Positions 43,783 to 53,429 of a DNA stretch of 64,000 nucleotides are shown in pieces. The stretch is from an uncultured delta proteobacterium (GTDB taxonomy: Bacteria > Desulfobacterota > Desulfomonilia > Desulfomonilales > Desulfomonilaceae), in the NCBI GenBank assembly GCA_963789265.1, contig CAWBKB010000004.1, forward strand, positions 64,001 to 128,000, written 5' to 3'. Numbering within the stretch: the stretch's first letter is position 1; every line of letters begins with the position of its first letter. The translations under genes and the position numbers were made by a program. Under the pieces are notes generated by a model that was not told where the DNA came from, did no database searches, and worked only from the letters and a program-made list of their open reading frames with translations.

Positions 43783-43933
43783 TTTCACCGGGCCGGGGAA
43801 AAGGCGGCGGACAGGCATGTGGAAAACGGCTGACCGCATGCACCTGCATCGATCGAGGAGTTTTTGGGCTTGGTTTACGTGAAAGCCTCTCGGTCGACAA
43901 AACGGCCTCGCAGACTGCATGGAGGTAATACCA

Positions 43934-44686
43934 ATGTCTCTGACCACGTGTTACGAATGCGCGGAAAAGGTTTCCAGTTTTGCCGAAGCCTGTCCCCATT
44001 GCGGGGCACCTATGGAAAACAAGATTATACACGCTGCACAGGTGGGCAACGTGGAGAATGTTCGGAACCTTTTGGCTGGCGGAGCTGATGTAAACGCGAA
44101 AGATCCCGACGGCTGGACCGCCTTGATTTCCGCCTGCCGTGAAGGCCACACCAAAGTGGTAAAGGAGCTGTTGGAAGCGGGCGCAGATGTTCGAGCGAAG
44201 GACGGTCACGGCTGGACACCGCTGATGTGGGCCTCCGCCTCAGGATATTACAGAATAGTAAACTTGCTCATAGAAAAAGGAGCAGAACTGGAGGCTAAGG
44301 ACCAATATGGCGCCACAGCATTGATGAAGGCTGCTCGCAGGGGATTCGAGGAAGTGGCGAAATTGCTCCTGGACAAAGGGGCCGACGTCAATGCCAAGGA
44401 CGATTATGGCTGGAATGCCTTGATGAGGGCTTGCCGACGAGGCTATTCAAAAGTGGCCAAATATCTCTTGGAATCGGGTGCGGACACCGAACCAAAGGAC
44501 CAATACGGGGCCACCGGCTTGATCATCGCTGCTGCCGAAGGCCATTTGGATGTAGTCAAGCAGCTCGTGAATGCCAATGCCAACGTGCATGCCAAAGACA
44601 GGAACGGCTGGACCGCTTTGATGTGGGCATCTTCCGAGGGATACAAAGAAGTGGTGGGATTTTTGAAGTCGCAAGGGGATGAATAA
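43934..44686 (+). CDS. Zinc-ribbon + ankyrin-repeat protein
   Basis: CYECAEKVSSFAEACPHCGAPM then about seven ankyrin repeats; GGAGG RBS. Confidence 0.92.
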   Translation: MSLTTCYECAEKVSSFAEACPHCGAPMENKIIHAAQVGNVENVRNLLAGGADVNAKDPDGWTALISACREGHTKVVKELLEAGADVRAKDGHGWTPLMWASASGYYRIVNLLIEKGAELEAKDQYGATALMKAARRGFEEVAKLLLDKGADVNAKDDYGWNALMRACRRGYSKVAKYLLESGADTEPKDQYGATGLIIAAAEGHLDVVKQLVNANANVHAKDRNGWTALMWASSEGYKEVVGFLKSQGDE

Positions 44687-44858
44687 GAGGGCATTGATGT
44701 TTCCCGCATACGGAACTTATGTGCGGTTGGCAGTGGTAAGAGGGGCGTCCCCGCCTCGAGACGTACTTGGCCGCCAATTTACTTGAAACATCGTCATTAC
44801 TATTGAGGCCCACTGGTACCGCGCTTGACGTTAATCGTCTCTAATCAGCAGAATGGAG

Positions 44859-45795
44859 TTATAGAAAATATCCCGTCACGTATTTCAAGCCTAGCACGCC
44901 GATGATGATTCCAAGTATGGGCCGAATGATCCAACCCGGCACGTGCTTCTGGACGGATGCTCCCAGGTACATTCCGATGAATCCGCCAACACCAAAGGGA
45001 ACGCCGAGCAGCCAGTCTGGAGAGACAGCCTCACCGGACGAAGCAAAATGAGGTCCGATAAGCGGATAGAACCAGAACCCCTCATATCGACGTTATGCAT
45101 GTCCCCATTAAAGTTGCCCCGGCAATTGTATGAATAGGAAGATGAAAGGAGGCCACTATAAAGGGTGCTATGATAGCACCCCCGCCGATCCCGTAAATCC
45201 CGCCCACCAGAGAAAGCATGAACAAGCCGGTCGTGTGAAAACTGAAGCATTCACCGAAGAATTCATATTCGGTACGCTTAAGGGACCAACTTATTGTGCG
45301 AATGGCAGGCTGACTCGAATCAAGAGCAGCTTCACATTCTTTCGTACGTCGTTGTCGCATTTTGGCCTCAGCAGCTACCTCGGCGGTTTGTAGGCCTCGC
45401 CGGGCCACCGCCTGGTAGAGCATTCGGCAGCCGATGAATAAGAGCACACTACCGGCAAAGAGTTAGAATGGCCCGGGATCAGGCAGAAAAACGATTCGTA
45501 TGATCATTCCCAGAAATAACCCGGGTAATGTTCCTATGATAATATTCCAGGCCAGCGGCCAGTTCATCCTCCCCTCACGAAAATGCCGCTAGACAGCACT
45601 GGGGATGCCGACCACATTGAAGACAAGGTTCGTCAGCGTCACAGCCGGGCTTGTGAAACCGAGAACACCCACTTGAAAGGGCAAGATCAGGAAGGCGCCT
45701 GATATTCCGGCGATAGAAGTGAGAAAGGAAATAACCAGGCCTACCATAGGCGGAACCCATACGACCGTTTCAACTCCCGAAACAGGGAAGGTCAT
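44859..45795 (-). pseudogene. TauE/SafE sulfite-exporter-family pseudogene
   Basis: FPVSGVE, GISGAFLILPFQ, GGIYGIGGGAIIAPF, PDWLLG...GMYLGA; in-frame TAG (45589), TAA (45463), TGA (45082) plus a frameshift. Confidence 0.85.
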
Positions 45796-46294
45796 CTCTG
45801 TTACCCTTTTAACAGATGACTACCGTGAACACCATTGAGAGTAGCCGCTGACACACCTCGGCAAAAATTCCCCCCTCTCTCGGCCGTCCATCCGGGCACG
45901 GGCACTCTTTATCATTCTTTACCTACAGTTAAGGAGACAGAGTTGAACACGCGGCGTCAACCGCAACGAATTTCACTATAGAAGTTGTCAGCGTGCGGTC
46001 AAGAGAATAGATCAAGTCCATGACATTTTAGTTTTTCGCTCAATTATGATTTGCGTTGGAAAAATCCATTCCGGCTCCGAAACGGACGCATCAGTACGCA
46101 ACAGGCCCCGAAGACTCTGCCGACGCCACACGCGTATCATTTCTTCCGAGAGCAAAACGACCTTATCGACAATTCCTATGAAGCCCCCTCATTACCCCCG
46201 GCAATCCCGCGTTCCGCGCGGGTCGGCTCTACGGACGTTTTCATGTTTCGTTGCTAGCTATGGGAGTTGGTATCAAGAACTCCTGCTTCGAGAC

Positions 46295-46600
46295 TTACCT
46301 TGATGCGGCCACCTCGATGTGTCTCCTTGACCGCTTTGAAGCGGATAGGTGGTGCCGTTTTGCTTGCTCCAGCCGCGCCTTTCTTTGCCATGCCAATATC
46401 ACTGCTCGCTGCCGTCGCGCTTGCTGTAAAAGCCTGTCATACCGGTCCCGGAGGAACAGTGCTTTACGTTGCGCACGCTCCCACTGCTGCTGCGTAGCCT
46501 GCGCCGACTTACCGGCGAGCGCTTGCCCAGGTAGGGTCATAATTCCAAGCAGCAGCATGAGAGCTGTGAACAACAATAGACTTAATAATGATGCTCTCAT
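46295..46600 (-). CDS. Hypothetical secreted basic helical protein
   Basis: Signal peptide (ALA) then Arg/Gln-rich helix. Confidence 0.5.
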   Translation of the reverse strand: MRASLLSLLLFTALMLLLGIMTLPGQALAGKSAQATQQQWERAQRKALFLRDRYDRLLQQARRQRAVILAWQRKARLEQAKRHHLSASKRSRRHIEVAASR

Positions 46601-46982
46601 TTTCTCGCGCCCCCATCCCCACAACAATTGCTTCTATTCGTGTAGATTCCTGTTGCGCAAAAAAGATTCGGCCGGAAAGGTTCGGGGGCCTTCTCGAGAA
46701 ATAAGCGATGTAGAATTTTGAAGAGTTACGGGAAATAATCCGAGCCTACCGGTCGGGGAGACCGGATACTGGTTACGGCTCTGAGAGGTGTGCCGTTAGA
46801 TAAAGTCCAAGCTCGCATACCGGATAACGAGATACGGCGGTTCGGACGCGCATGCTTCATGCCTCGAACCGCCGCTGCATTTCTTCCCTGTCCGCTGCAT
46901 TAACCGCTATGAGACGGGTTTGGGAGACCGTTCCAAAGCAAAGCACGGAGTAGCAATGTCCGCCCACGCGATGCCCGTGAAA

Positions 46983-47396
46983 TCATTGGCCGCCCGCGGC
47001 CTTAAGGTACGGGCAAGTAGGAGTGGAAGTGGGTGACGTCGTTGACCCAGTGGTTCCCGCGGCTGTTTGAGTGGTGGAGTTCGGAGTGGTCGAGGTCGTT
47101 GCAGTCGTTGTTGTAGCAGCCGCGTTCTGATTAGTGGAGGATGTCGGCATGACCGGTGTCGCGGTCGTGTCCTGATTTGTCCCGGAGGTTGTCGTGGTAG
47201 ATGTGGTAGCCGCGTTTGGATCTTTCCAGGTTTTCTTTGTTCCTTTGGCCTGGGTCATGACATCCCCGGTGATTCTCCCGTCATTGGGGCCGATGCTCAG
47301 TCTCATATTAGTCTGAATCGTCATATTGGTCTGGTCAGCCATGCTAGCGCCTACAGTAGCCACCAGGACCAGGCTAATCAACAGAATAGTTTTCAT
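46983..47396 (-). CDS. Hypothetical secreted Thr-rich low-complexity protein
   Basis: GGAG RBS, signal peptide, long T/S/A tract, C-terminal CPY. Confidence 0.65.
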   Translation of the reverse strand: MKTILLISLVLVATVGASMADQTNMTIQTNMRLSIGPNDGRITGDVMTQAKGTKKTWKDPNAATTSTTTTSGTNQDTTATPVMPTSSTNQNAAATTTTATTSTTPNSTTQTAAGTTGSTTSPTSTPTCPYLKAAGGQ

Positions 47397-47889
47397 CGCT
47401 TCAACTCCAGGAAAGGTTGGATAAGAATCTATCCTTATGTGGAAAACCTTATCATATATAACAACAAATTACAACCATTTATTAAAGTAATACATTAAAT
47501 ATGGTTATCCTAGCCCATGATTCGAGGGCATTTGTGTGATTATCCCCTGACAGATGAATGCCGCGGATTTCTTCAAGAAGTTTCAAATGGGTAAGAAAGC
47601 GAAGGCGGACAATCCCTACCGTCGTAACGTAGAAAAATCTCGGCGCCTTTTAACAAAGAACTACAAATCTCGTCAAATTATTAAGCAAACCGAGAACGGA
47701 GAGCCTCAAAAAAGGACTGGTACCATTGCGCGTTCAAAAGAATGATCAAGAACGTCTTGGCCGGCAGAGACGTCGGCCCTATCCTGCGGCATAGCGACGC
47801 GCCTCCGTGCCTGTCGTTTTGCCGGTATGAAAGCGCATTGGTCTGAGGTCTCTTCAAAGATGCCGGTGCGTCCAAGGAGGAAAATTCCC

Positions 47890-48132
47890 ATGGACATCAA
47901 TCTCATTTATATTCTTGCGGTCCTCTTGTTTGCGATCGCAGGGTTCATCACGTATGAGGTGCTGTTGGCCATCGTTTGGCGGTCCGCCGAAGGGAGAAAA
48001 AATTCCATCTTCGATAATATTCATGATCACAGTAATCTGCGATCGTACGGGGCATGTTACGATAACTGCATGATTGAGTCTCACTGGGATCCCGGTCATG
48101 TCCCACTGTGTACTGCAACCTGTAATATCTGA
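47890..48132 (+). CDS. Small membrane protein with a four-Cys C-terminus
   Basis: AAGGAGG RBS; one TM helix; CYDNC...CTATC. Confidence 0.6.
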   Translation: MDINLIYILAVLLFAIAGFITYEVLLAIVWRSAEGRKNSIFDNIHDHSNLRSYGACYDNCMIESHWDPGHVPLCTATCNI

Positions 48133-48208
48133 TTTGTTTAAGGGCACGCGCCGTGATTCTAAAGTTCATGGCGCCACCCTTGTTGAGTTACCTGGCCTCA
48201 ACTCCTCG

Positions 48209-50819
48209 CTACAAGGCGGTAGTGGCGTCGCGTGGCGCAACTTGGGAGCTTTTGTTTTGCACCCCTTCCATGAATTCGGCATCCGCAAGGTCGCCGTGTT
48301 TGTCGAAGAAGGCAGCCAAAGATTTCGCAATGTCCTCATCGCTTTTCAACTGGACGTCCAATTGTCGTGTAAAACCGATCAATGAGCCGAGAGCGCGGAG
48401 ACGCCGTTGAATGTCTTCCTTTGGAAGATGGAGGATTCGGCCCACAATGAGATCGCCCTTTACCGTAACTTTAAAGTGGTAGTGGGTCAAAATGTCGCCC
48501 AGGAGCTGAGCTCTACGGGAGCGCCGTGTGAAATCGGTTACTCCCCCCAGAAATCTGAAGTAGATGTGGTTTTGATTATCGTCGTCTTCCATCCTGGCGT
48601 CGATGAGATTGAGGTGGTATCCAAGGCGTAGGTGGAGGTTCATATAGATCTCATTGATCACGGCCAAGTTAACCCCCGCGAGAGTTGCCCCCGCGGCGTC
48701 CCAGGTTTCTTGTAAAGCTCGACATTAAAGCCCTGAAATCCACTGCAACCGGCTCCGTGTTCCATGTTCCCGGCCGGGACACCCCTTCCCACAGAGCTTT
48801 GAGAGGTAACGATCGAATCTGATTAGCTCTGACCGTGTTTCCCTCTGCCAGAGGATCGAGCCCTCCCCCGAGATCGAGAATTTTCAGTCCCATAGGGACT
48901 TCAGATATAAGGGTCCACACGTTGGTGCTTTTGAAGCGCTTGAGCACGGTGGGGAGATCCATCAGTTCCTGAACTGCCTTTTCATGTATGAACCTGATCA
49001 TATCGTGGACGGATTCGCACCCGTCTGGGGTGAAGTTGTGCAACTGGGGATCCATGAGGTGGAGGGGAGCGACCCGTTGGAGAATTCTCCGCAAAAGGCG
49101 GAATTCAGGGGCTTCCTCGAAAACCACCGGTTGGGCCAATTCGTATCGAATCAGTTCCTCGACGCGTCCTTTGTAGACGATTCGATGGCTCGTATCGAGC
49201 GTAATTTCCATGCCGTCAGTAATCATGTCTGCGGCACTATCTACGCCCAGCAGCGTCGGTACACGGAATTCTCTTGCGATGGTGGCAAGATGTCCTGCCG
49301 CGGAGCCTCGTTCAGAAATTATGGCGGAAGCCTTGGGCACTATCCGGGCCAACCAGGGCGCGGTATATCGTGTAACCAGCACAGCCCCATCGGGAAATTC
49401 GGCCATATCCTCATTGGACTGCACAATATGTGCTGATCCCGATCCGACGCCTCCATGGGCCACGACTCCCCTGCCCCGTATGAGTATGGGATAATTGGCG
49501 CAAGTTTCGAAAAACTCCTCCGGTATCCGATCCGTGGTATCCGGCAGTCCCAAGCGCCTGCTCTGAAACAATCTGGGGTCGCCCTTTGCGTCCAATGCCC
49601 ACTCAAGTTCCAGCGGACGCTTGAAATAACGTTCCAGAGCAAGTCCCCACTTTGCCAGAGTACGCACCGCAACGTCCGGAATCGTCGCCTGTGTCTGTTG
49701 GTTTGGGGTGAGCGCAGTCTCTTCTTCACCGCCATTCGTTGCCGACCTTAAGAGAAGCTTCTTCTTTGCGATTCTGGCCTCTTTAATCTTGTACGGCGGT
49801 TCCTTTTCCACAACCCACTGATCAAGAACGTCCCTTCCTTCCGCGGTTGTTCGCCCCAATCCGAACGATGCATAAATCGCCATGCAATTGGGCTCCGGAA
49901 AATCCGGACATACTGTCTGGAGCACTCCGCTGGCCTGGCTGTTGACCATTTCCTGGCAAAGGACGGCCATGGCCACCTCCTCGCCTATGGTCCCCATCTG
50001 GTGGCGGTAATTAATAGTCTCCGGAGAGTAGAGACTGGCGAGCACCATCTTGTACCTGTCGAGGATTTGTCCGGGGGGCACATTCAGAAAAGTCTCATGA
50101 AGCCCGGCAAAAGACAATTCTCCATCTTCCCCGTACGCGCTGCTGCGCACCGACCAATTGTGTTTGCCTTTGTCGGCACGACGCGTGATAGCCTTGGCCA
50201 AGTCCTGGGGAATTTCGCCATCGAAGATGCCTTTTCGAATTTGTTCGGAGGCTTTGTCCAGGTCATCCTGGCCCGAAGCCCAGGCTTCGAGCCAAGAATG
50301 AATTCTGTCCTCAAGATGGTTGTGCTCAAGGAATCGGTAATAAGCCCGGGTGGTGATAACGAATCCGTCGGGCACGGGAAGGTGAAGGCGATGGATTATT
50401 TCAGCCAGATTATTTGCCTTACCACCGGTCAGTTCCGGATTGTCCAAAGGAGCGTCGGCGAGCCGAATCACGTACGGTGTGTCCCACGATTTCAGCCGGC
50501 CCCTAAGCTCCGACTCAACAGGCAGAACTCGGTCCAGAGTCGAGTAAAGCTTCAAATAACGGTCGGATCCGATCAGATTCAAGCCTTTTATCATGCGAAG
50601 CAACACGTTCTGGAGTTCGCGCACTGAATCCTGGAGATATTTTCGGTCGAATATGAAGTCTCCTCCGGCTTTTTCACCCAGATCCGCCATGAGTTCCATG
50701 GCTTTCTGGTGGTCTTGGAGCAACATACTCTGAAATTGCTCGAAAATCTGTGCAAACGCAATCGGGCTGCGCTGGCGTGCAACTGCTCTTCGAAACGTCC
50801 TGGTAAAAAACGTGAACAT
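48209..50819 (-). CDS. PEP/pyruvate-binding-domain dikinase-like protein (frameshift near 48690)
   Basis: GGKANNL, VRSSA.GED...SFAG, SGV, LEWA, swivel domain GHLATIAREFRVP, C-terminal LRLGYH / FRFLGG. Confidence 0.85.
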
Positions 50820-51533
50820 GCGCGCTCCTGCCTTGATGAAATACCTGATCAGGCTCCACCACCGCGGCAACCTGCCATGCACTCCCCTTACTTTCCGAGC
50901 ACGACTCTGTTGCGAATCCAGTCCATTAAGGATAAGTACCGCCAAGAAAAGACACTGATGATCGTTGATGATGCCCTCATACAGAAAGAGACTCTACCGC
51001 GTCGTCCGTCAAAAGGGGAGAGGGCATAGATTGCTCTTCCATTGAAGACAAAGAAGAATATCCGGTAGTTCCAGGCAGGATCTTGCCGGGACCCCGAATC
51101 TGCCCCTCAATGAGGCAATTACCATGACAAGCGGACGACGTTTTCGTCAACCCCGGGTCAAGCGGTAGAACCGACCGCCGGACACTAAGTTCAACAACTC
51201 CTAAAATATTTTAGCAGATTTTTCCTCGGGAGCAACATTGATAAATTTCATCTTTTTCTGTAGTCGTCAGGCGGACCATTAGAGTTCATTGCACAGCGCG
51301 CCGAGCATGCAGAGAATTCTCCTCGCAGCCCCGGCCGAATGCCATTCGCGAGCAGATCCTCACAAACCGGAATTCGACGCTCCGGACTGAGAAGCAAACA
51401 AAAATAGAATTTTCCGCGTTCCCCGCGGTGAACTATTGAAAATGTTTCATTGAAGACTGACTCAAAGATATGTTATCCATCCTTAACATTTCGGAATTGT
51501 ACCGTTGCCGGAGAACCCGGTTGAGAGACCAAT

Positions 51534-51626: not shown

Positions 51627-51819
51627 GTTCGAGCTTCTTTGTCAAGTGAGCAGTTCCGTAGCATTTTGCCATAGCCGCTCTGGCATGGCTTCCAAGATAC
51701 AAGAAACCGATCCATCTGGGATGACGAACGTTGCTGCTGCTTTAGGTGAACAGTTCTATGCAGCTCAGGTGAGGGATCATACCGTCTGACTAACACCGAC
51801 TGAAAACAAGGAGCTTGCC

Positions 51820-53014
51820 ATGGCTAAAAGCGCGGATGAACAACAGATCATGAAAGTTTTGATTGAGCTCGCTGAGGAAGAGAACAAGCTCACAGAGACC
51901 ATGATAGATATGATGGGAGAGACAAATGAAATGGCTGCAAGTCGGACGGCAAACGCCGAATTGCGAACCAACTTGTCCGGAGAGCGGACTCAGCTCGTGC
52001 GGGAACAAACAAAGTTCAGCGCAAAGAGCACCGAGCTTGCGGAGAAACGGACTGAATTTGCCACCAAGAGAACAGGATGGGCCGAAAAGCGCACCGAGCT
52101 TGCGGATTATCGAACGAATCTGGCACGCGATCGGTACTTCGCTGGCGAACAACCGTACCGAACTAGCCAACAAAAGGACATCCCTGGCAGAAGGTCGAAC
52201 CTCGCTCGCGCAGAAGCGTACCGAGCTTGCAGATTATCGAACAAACCTGGCTCGCGATCGTTCTTCCTTGGCGAATGACCGTACCGAACTTGCCGCAAAA
52301 AGGACATCGCTGGCAGAGGGTCGGACCTCCCTTGCGCAGAAGCGAACCGAGCTTGCCGATTATCGAACAAATTTAGCACGTGACCGTACTTCCTTCGCGA
52401 ATGGCCGTACCGAACTGGCCAACAAAAGAACATCGCTGGCAGAAGGTCGAACCTCCCTCGCGGAGAAGCGTACCGAGCTTGCCGACTTTCGAACAAACTT
52501 GTCTCGTGACCGTACTTCCCTGGCCAACGACCGTACCGAACTGGCCAACAAAAGGACATCGCTGGCAGAAGGTCGAACCTCCCTCGCGGAGAAGCGTTCC
52601 GAGCTTGCCGATCTTCGAACAAATCTGTCACGTGACCGTACTTCCCTGGCCAACGACCGTACCGAACTGGCATCGAAGCGAACAGACCTTTCCTCCAGAC
52701 GAACTTCTTTGGCTCAGGAAAGAAATGACCTGGCCAGTAACCGTACTGTTTTTTCCACTTACCGTTCCATTTTGGCCAAAGGCAGAACTGATCTGGCCCT
52801 TATACGCACGGGCTTTGCTTCAATCGCTCTGGGTATCGGCTTGATTCGTTTCTTCGGTTTTGGGCTATGGTCAACCCTCGATTTGGGCCTTGTGATAGTG
52901 GGCATCGGCGTGACGACATTCGCGGTCCAAAGCTACATTGTCACGAAGACTAAAGAGCGCAAGCTGAATCGGGCCATATCTGAAATCATCTCCGAGCTAC
53001 AGCTTCTTGCCTAA
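51820..53014 (+). CDS. DUF202/YidH-like membrane protein with about 42 RTxLAxx heptads (frameshift near 52133)
   Basis: AAGGAG RBS; removing one G joins the two ORFs into 397 aa; ends in RTDLALIRTGF + two TM helices. Confidence 0.8.
52090..52721 (+). repeat. Coding tandem repeat: five 126-bp units, each six 21-bp sub-units
   Basis: RTELADY-RTNLARD-RTSLAND-RTELANK-RTSLAEG-RTSLAQK recurs five times. Confidence 0.9.
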
Positions 53015-53115
53015 ACGAATAGTGAAATGTGCTTTCAAATTCGCGATTCGCGGACGTCGTGTACTTGTGCAGTGAGGTTAACTTCCGTACCGAGCGGTAA
53101 AGCAGGGAGGCCAGG

Positions 53116-53404
53116 GATCGGCGTTAAAATAGCGTTAATCAGTTGGTCATAGGCGGTTGTCCCGAAGGGACGTTTTGATAGTAGCCCGGTGCTTCAGCGC
53201 CGGGGAAAGAGTCAAAAGAGAACCCCTGCGTCCCATAGGGACGTCCGAATGTTATCCTAGAAATCGATCTTTCAAGCGTCCCTATGGGACGCACAACCGG
53301 TACATGATTGGTCGCTTACCCGGCAATGAATTGCCGGGCTATTATCTTGGCGTCCCTCTGGGGCTCATAAAGTTGCACCGAGATGTCTTATTTTAACGCC
53401 TATG
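53116..53404. mobile_element. MITE with IS4-like ends and 11-bp target duplication, carrying multi-hairpin REP cargo
   Basis: Ends gatcggcgttaaaata / tattttaacgcctatg; identical flanks gggaggccagg at 53105-53115 and 53405-53415. Confidence 0.8.
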
Positions 53405-53429
53405 GGGAGGCCAGGGGTAGTGCTTTCTC

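Follow-up and report, generated by a model that had tools for sequence, protein, structure and literature searches.

A DUF202/YidH-family membrane protein carrying a stalk of 42 in-register arginine heptads in an uncultured delta proteobacterium

The window analyzed in this study is a stretch of 64,000 nucleotides from the assembly of an uncultured soil delta proteobacterium of the family Desulfomonilaceae (GCA_963789265.1, contig CAWBKB010000004.1, positions 64,001 to 128,000). On its forward strand it holds a gene for a membrane protein of the DUF202 family in which an arginine-containing heptad is repeated over most of the length of the protein (Table 1). The gene stands alone, being divergent from a gene for a PEP-synthase-like dikinase and convergent with a gene for a Kup potassium transporter. 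Scans for promoters and terminators around the gene gave matches no more frequent than in shuffled sequence. In the assembly, the coding region is split into two overlapping open reading frames on the forward strand (51820..52278 and 51926..53014; translation table 11), and the repeat passes from the first frame to the second at 52132-52136. When the CGGT at 52132-52135 is taken as one step, a single open frame of 397 aa results. The initial annotation had arrived at a protein of this length by removing one G near 52133, and reading in the continuous frame confirmed this. The heptad pattern already shows in the N-terminal head of the protein, where a hydrophobic position 4 can be traced back to residue 7. 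The two arginine-less heptads that interrupt the arginine pattern are common to subfamily A, to which the protein belongs, and to the Acidobacteriota-type relatives.

Table 1. Features of the stalk gene and of the adjacent dikinase gene; positions are counted from the first nucleotide of the window.
Feature	Positions	Strand	Description	Basis
PEP-synthase-like dikinase	48299..50945	-	PPDK_N and PEP-utilizers, plus C-terminal part of no known family	
Shine-Dalgarno-like AAGGAG	51808..51813	+	6 nt upstream of ATG at 51820	read from sequence
Whole gene	51820..53014	+	397 aa plus stop, with one G of GG 52133-52134 skipped	colinear with L019 orthologue, 1195 nt
N-terminal head	51820..51942	+	residues 1-41	conserved in subfamily A (..IMxxLIxLAEEENxLTExM..)
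Stalk	51943..52825	+	residues 42-335; 42 heptads R-T-x-L-A-x-x in one register	
Two Arg-less conserved heptads	52006..52047	+	residues 63-76; QTKFSAK STELAEK	
Five higher-order units	52090..52720	+	residues 91-300; 42 aa (126 bp) each	
Extra G splitting the frame	52133..52133	+		X1 contig and L019 without the base; dN/dS 0.12-0.18 on both sides
Pfam DUF202 (PF02656) match	52763..52942	+	residues 315-374	E 1.7e-10, 41.6 bits
Last RT heptad and first membrane helix	52805..52855	+	residues 329-345, then loop GFGL	
Second membrane helix	52868..52942	+	residues 350-374	
Basic amphipathic C-terminal helix	52943..53011	+	residues 375-397	

Several further features were observed in the window. Downstream of the stalk gene lies a dispersed repeat (53100-53420), matched 53 times in the own genome at E <= 0.001 when the query's place is counted, which holds palindromes such as TGCGTCCCATAGGGACG / CGTCCCTATGGGACGCA (53227-53243 and 53277-53293) and is possibly a small non-coding mobile or REP-like element. 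An ORF of 101 aa at 57845-58150 matches a ParE toxin domain (E 7.8e-06; 26.8 bits, cut-off 23), and 43919-44686 encodes an ankyrin-repeat protein of 255 aa whose N terminus weakly matches a zinc ribbon. The following ~4 kb (44686-48669) contain short ORFs only; four of these were scanned (46251-46721, 46983-47396, 47067-47498 and 48209-48667) and gave no Pfam match, the last one being the dikinase's frame-shifted end. Further frame errors may account for the low coding density of this part.

To judge the integrity of the stalk gene, the site of the extra G was compared with the other repeat units, with read-derived data and with an orthologue. The other units read GAT/GAC CGT ACT TCx, and at 52132-52136 GAT CGG TAC TTC is found instead. 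The only public-run contig over position 52133 (X1; 246 nt, spanning 51975-52221 at a depth of ~6) lacks the base and shows no other difference; it may represent the same sample as the assembly, assembled another way. Two further runs, X2 and X3, cover only small parts, with position 52133 outside them. The orthologue, from a MAG labeled uncultured delta proteobacterium (L019), is colinear with the window gene over 1195 nt at 83.4% DNA identity, and the alignment contains three 1-base gaps only, caused by the one extra G in the window and two in L019. With these single bases skipped, both genes read through, and 341 of 398 protein positions are identical (terminal stop counted). Over the whole gene, the dN/dS ratio between the two is 0.15, and the four segments delimited by the indel sites each give 0.12-0.18, compared with 1.0 and 2.6 in the two other frames; judged by these ratios, the stalk gene is under purifying selection. 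All three extra Gs occur in the context GATCG-G-TACTTC at homologous positions of different units (52133 in the window; 6518 and 6771 in L019). A systematic base-calling error at GATCGTAC is not supported by the 8-mer counts, which show no genome-wide excess (GATCGTAC 170 vs. GATCGGTAC 59, a ratio like that of control motifs); the 11-mer counts (1 vs. 3) are too small to judge. A homopolymer tract is not present at the site. The frame break at 52133 is very probably an assembly error. Since both the X1 contig and L019 lack the base, the continuous frame is under purifying selection and the neighboring dikinase gene is frame-broken as well, the stalk gene is most likely intact and encodes 397 aa.

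Laid out backwards from the DUF202 motif, the array comprises 42 heptads without any register break and joins directly to RTDLALI-RTGFASI and the first membrane helix, as the initial annotation had described with about 42 R-T-x-L-A-x-x heptads running into this motif. Of the 42 heptads, 40 have R at position 1; position 2 is occupied by 38 T and 3 S, position 4 by 35 L and 5 F, and position 5 by 35 A and 6 S. The higher-order units begin at residues 91, 133, 175, 217 and 259. Units 1-4 have 37-39 of 42 residues in common pairwise, and unit 5 has 30-33 in common with the others. On the DNA level, identity amounts to 84-90% among units 1-4 and to 69-75% for the fifth unit, and Tandem Repeats Finder reported a period of 126 bp with 4.6 copies and 86% matches at 52087-52671. 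The units had been described as near-identical, which holds for the protein but not for the DNA. Since dS among units 1-4 is 0.32-0.67 at a dN/dS of 0.07-0.15, the duplications are old and the protein has been held by selection. The L019 orthologue has the same repeat number at a divergence of dS 0.58; from this comparison, the array length appears to be stable over such a distance and to vary only between genera. Recent tuning of the length by repeat recombination, as suggested earlier, is not supported, given the divergence of the units and an unchanged repeat number at 83% DNA identity. The stalk contains 62 R/K and 40 D/E residues, giving a net charge of +22, and at ~+0.5 per heptad the stalk as a whole is not strongly cationic. 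Read from the sequence, the intrahelical neighbors of each Arg at i+/-3 and i+/-4 are Leu and Ala, without an acidic partner. With a canonical coiled coil the array shares the unbroken heptad periodicity and does not share the hydrophobic residues at both core positions; the center of its conserved face is formed by Arg and Ala, with Leu and Thr at the flanks.

The proposed assignment to DUF202 was borne out by the PF02656 search, in which the protein scored above the gathering score (41.6 bits vs. a cut-off of 23.4; 46.6 bits for a 292-aa piece alone), the Pfam model spanning the first two helices only and the match being independent of a third helix. The rest of the Pfam and NCBIfam scan of the protein gave only sub-threshold coiled-coil noise. 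The sequence RSILAKG-RTDLALI-RTGFASI before the first membrane helix consists of in-phase (E)RTxLA heptads, as in DUF202 proteins, and the protein has two hydrophobic helices only, not three. Each of the three ordinary DUF202 genes of the own genome encodes three in-phase R-[ST] heptads and three hydrophobic segments, which contradicts the earlier assumption that ordinary members carry one or two (E)RT motifs. A second stalked gene was not found in the own genome. To our knowledge, the bacterial DUF202/YidH proteins form a large family with no known function, and the only DUF202 relatives studied so far that we know of are those forming the polyphosphate pore of the eukaryotic VTC. In a literature search on DUF202, YidH and PF02656, with subscription journals outside its scope, no title or abstract on a heptad array was found.

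A word-indexed search yielded 61 relatives of 160-511 aa. In 47 of them, 10 or more R-[TSN] heptads follow each other in register (typically 13-16, with a maximum of 21). The remaining proteins include some with three DUF202 modules, partly with a T2SS-E N-terminal domain. Proteins of the multi-module kind (P0009, P0014, P0016, P0039, P0052 and P0070) are 400-570 aa long and contain two or three DUF202 modules with ~six RT heptads ahead of each, and the T2SS-E N-terminal domain (PF05157) is present on some of them. PF28019 is annotated on P0008 and P0038, and PF27734 on P0031. In the genome collection, 27 loci with 16-36 heptads were found at E <= 1e-33, three weaker loci being left out of the counts. 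Desulfohalobiaceae, Syntrophaceae, Desulfobaccales, Desulfomonilaceae and delta proteobacterium MAGs encode proteins of 271-367 aa with 22-36 heptads, and the Acidobacteriota-type loci proteins of 259-287 aa with 18-22 heptads. The genes at L014, L019 and L020 are frame-broken in their own assemblies. Relatives with 22-36 heptads are thus common in related genomes, and the architecture is not unique. The 42 heptads of the window gene and L019 are the most among the relatives surveyed. Within the class to which the own genome belongs, matches at E <= 1e-15 occur in 20 of 122 genomes, the own genome counted, and are confined to one family (19 of 69 genomes without the own one; 3 of 6 in the own genus; 0 of 52 in the other family). 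As a measure of family size, the 1381 matches at E <= 0.001 in the representative library were rejected, many of the top 150 being unrelated giant coiled-coil/low-complexity proteins, and P0106, P0065 and P0157, which have the most RT heptads by regular expression in that library, turned out on inspection to be unrelated repeats.

Across the family, 494 heptads of 19 loci were pooled; the consensus has R in 95%, T in 89%, L in 82% and A in 79% of them (S in 16%), and E or D stands at position 3 in 45%. Both ends of the family alignment are conserved and the middle is variable. Heptad phase was analyzed by the distance from the distal anchor QTxFSxKSTELA, taken from the two Arg-less heptads, to the RTG before the first membrane helix. 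This spacing equals a whole number of heptads (2 to 38) in 55 of 56 proteins with both anchors, the single exception being a 183-aa entry. By this measure, the heptad phase is kept throughout the family, with a heptad number varying from ~16 to 42. The window gene is the longest member seen of an undescribed stalked branch of the DUF202/YidH family.

The dikinase recurs beside family members. Of 28 loci, 18 (the window among them) have a homologue in the flanking sequence retrieved, and the other ten include several loci ended by contig ends. Within subfamily A it is found nearby in only two of seven loci, namely the window and L019. The dikinase of the window is 58% identical to that in the stalk gene's cluster of L011. 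One Desulfobacterota subfamily has the gene order dikinase, response regulator, 267-aa protein, stalk gene, histidine kinase, response regulator, and in 11 loci of the Acidobacteriota type a cytidylate-kinase-like gene lies directly upstream. An equivalence of this cytidylate-kinase-like partner with the 267-aa partner (subfamily B) was rejected, there being no detectable relation (E 0.27). Histidine kinase genes flank the stalk gene in 17 and response regulator genes in 16 of the 27 genome loci; such kinase-like, histidine-kinase and response-regulator neighbors of other subfamilies are absent from the window. The own genome contains three dikinase paralogues and four DUF202 genes, and two of the former lie beside two of the latter, one of these pairs overlapping. 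In L044 (7060-9530, contig C5), the second dikinase paralogue, which is frame-broken, is overlapped at its 3' end by an ordinary DUF202 gene of 153 aa on the same strand. The third paralogue, in L043 (4166-11667, contig C1), belongs to a row of genes on one strand, namely TauE, Alph_Pro_TM, dikinase, response regulator, 263-aa protein and two Usp genes. The 263-aa protein shares 46% identity with the cluster protein of 267 aa in L011, and the row corresponds to the cluster of other genomes without a stalked DUF202 gene.

The dikinase gene of the window is broken near 48700 (frame -3 to -1), probably by another assembly indel, and the L019 orthologue is broken at a different place. Against the PEP synthase models TIGR01418 and NF005057 it scores 287 bits (cut-off 739.75) and 286.8 bits (cut-off 598), matching only their first two thirds; a full-length match to PEP synthase is not obtained. 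For the C-terminal 300 aa no Pfam match was obtained, and an Atlas look-up gave only unnamed or 'PEP-utilizing' clusters. The AlphaFold2 model of this domain is poor (pLDDT 59.6), and Foldseek with it returned nothing at E <= 0.001.

Structure models were calculated for the stalk protein. For residues 106-397, AlphaFold2 with a 32-row alignment gave a mean pLDDT of 86.4 and predicted one helix over residues 108-345, i.e. stalk and first membrane helix, followed by a four-residue loop and a second helix comprising the second membrane helix and the tail. The continuous helix joined to the membrane helix that had been postulated is in agreement with this model; at ~0.15 nm per residue, the stalk is ~44 nm long if helical. 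Foldseek of the stalk model against the PDB returned nothing at E <= 0.001, with only weak rows for Vtc1 chains (E 0.3-0.9), and phmmer of the C-terminal 104 aa against PDB sequences gave chance membrane-helix matches only (QacA, odorant receptor), which were discarded. Four copies of residues 218-397 gave an ipSAE of 0.69 in three runs, with at least 95% contact agreement and a partner pLDDT of at least 77, and the best of 3 controls gave 0.00. The ipSAE mark is reached by 20 of 30 proteins solved as one-chain pairs and by 1 of 23 solved as single chains, counts that come from two copies and hold only roughly for four. In the model, the bundle is parallel and in register, with Arg-Arg and Ala-Ala contacts at the same level. 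Each helix turns its L/A/x7/R side to one neighbor and its R/T/A/x6 side to the other, and heptad position 3 alone is never in contact. From these same-level contacts and the neighbor pattern, Arg and Ala are predicted to face the bundle axis and Leu and Thr to form the seams between helices, which agrees with the inward orientation of Arg considered earlier. The four-copy model supports self-association without showing it, as structure models readily place coiled-coil sequences side by side, and four copies are not distinguishable from five or six. A four-helix bundle has no real channel, and the tube with a lumen and the polyphosphate binding suggested earlier gain no support from the model. 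A core of like-charged arginines is energetically costly, and counter-ions are beyond the model.

On this basis, we propose with moderate confidence that the intact stalked DUF202 protein forms an oligomeric, arginine-cored and anion-holding stalk on a channel-like anchor, linked to a phosphotransfer enzyme. The stalk would lie in the cytoplasm, because the protein has no signal peptide, the net charge is +22 and in VTC this motif is turned towards the cytosol. It would continue the first membrane helix as a single helix of ~44 nm, and several copies would assemble as a parallel, in-register coiled coil with Arg and Ala to the axis and Leu and Thr as seams, the arginines thereby stacking every 1 nm along the axis. 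With Leu and Ala as i+/-3 and i+/-4 neighbors, the axial arginines would not be neutralized within the helix and would therefore probably hold anions; this anion holding, which we infer, is the weakest step of the mechanism. The stalk would then act as an anion-binding extension of the DUF202 channel-like anchor, and it probably works with the PEP-synthase-like dikinase and with the two-component and Usp genes recurring beside family members.

The main rival explanation takes the stalk as a rigid signaling rod or spacer, which sets the distance between head and membrane or relays conformational changes of the head to the membrane hairpin. Possible binding partners of the head would be a response regulator, the dikinase or a Usp-type protein, and the arginines would be structural, paired with acidic residues of neighboring helices and without a ligand. 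Length changes by whole heptads at strict phase (55 of 56) are expected of a signal-carrying coiled coil, and the conserved ends with a variable middle, the histidine kinase and response regulator genes in the flanks of 17 and 16 of 27 loci and the acidic residues at position 3 in 45% of the 494 heptads fit this reading as well. We nevertheless consider it rather unlikely: an R at 95% and a T at 89% over hundreds of heptads go beyond the need of a spacer, neither a histidine kinase nor a response regulator lies near the window gene, and position 3, the most acidic one, is the only non-contact position in the four-copy model. It is hardly probable that the repeat forms an amphipathic helix lying along the membrane's inner face, which shapes or senses the membrane with Leu and Ala in the lipid and Arg and Thr on lipid phosphates. 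The conserved L-R-A-T face does mix small hydrophobic and cationic residues, and the stalk is anchored at the membrane, but one Leu and one Ala per heptad make for weak hydrophobicity, Arg lies in the middle of the face and not at its edges, and the models show self-association and a straight helix continuous with the first membrane helix. A true pseudogene, or a phase-variable or programmed-frameshift gene with a real extra G and a full-length protein made rarely or never, agrees with the assembly itself and with the three 1-base insertions recurring in one context at homologous unit positions, and is highly improbable in view of the sole public-run contig without the base, the purifying selection on both sides of every indel, the lack of a homopolymer tract and of a genome-wide 8-mer excess, and the unrelated frame break in the neighboring gene that is expected of an error-prone assembly.

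Selection has maintained 42 strictly in-phase copies of the DUF202 signature motif in this protein, which offers a natural experiment on the role of this motif. If true, arginine filling the normally hydrophobic core position of a coiled coil over 44 nm would be an unusual structural solution, and such an arginine core would point to anion handling as the function of the DUF202 family. Since the stalk is soluble, repetitive and engineerable in length, the question is directly testable by biophysics, and the recurring dikinase neighbor provides a second handle on function.

In chemoreceptor signaling domains, length classes differ by whole heptads with the phase preserved, as in the stalk family. 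Chemoreceptors are antiparallel hairpins with hydrophobic cores, and they have no sequence relation to the stalk protein. In coiled-coil trimers and tetramers, such as the motifs of trimeric autotransporter adhesins, inward-facing hydrophilic core residues coordinate axial ions (PMC13580157). The adhesin-type cores consist of Asn, Gln and Asp over a few heptads, whereas the stalk has Arg at the core position in 40 of 42 consecutive heptads and its ion binding is only predicted. With DUF202/YidH proteins, e.g. E. coli YidH and the three ordinary proteins of the own genome, the stalk protein shares the in-phase R-[ST]-x-L-A heptads running into the first membrane helix. Ordinary DUF202 proteins have three heptads and three membrane helices; the stalk protein has 42 heptads, two membrane helices and, in addition, an N-terminal head. 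YidH itself is only listed as a candidate that failed a D-alanine export assay in the section consulted of one report (PMC10299036).

The yeast VTC consists of five three-helix subunits in a ring, with the first membrane helix lining the pore. Two rings of positive charge at the cytoplasmic mouth are made up of K24 and R31 of Vtc1, which are 7 residues apart, and of the equivalent residues in Vtc3 and Vtc4, and charge reversal lowers the polyphosphate content (10.1101/2023.01.27.525886). DUF202 is also given for Vtc subunits in a table of a diatom paper (PMC7283521). With Vtc1, Vtc3 and Vtc4 (PDB 7YTJ, 8I6V) the stalk protein shares the Pfam domain, and a phosphotransfer enzyme is associated in both cases. 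The SPX and catalytic tunnel (CYTH-like) domains of VTC were found neither in the protein nor in the 12 neighboring ORFs scanned, so that it is not a member of VTC, and the enzyme beside the stalk gene is, unlike that of VTC, a separately encoded PEP-synthase-like dikinase. The fold match of the stalk model to the Vtc1 chains is weak. Vtc1 and the ordinary paralogues have three membrane helices and the stalk protein has two; a pentameric pore as in VTC is therefore not assured. A bacterial counterpart of the VTC principle, in which the dikinase would make or charge a phosphorylated polyanion, a ring of stalked DUF202 proteins would guide this polyanion along an Arg-lined coiled-coil conduit of up to 44 nm to a membrane pore, and the stalk length, fixed by the number of heptads, would determine how far the enzyme is from the membrane, is a speculative extension that we regard as quite unlikely. 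The stalk looks like the two-ring motif of VTC repeated, with 42 heptads in place of two.
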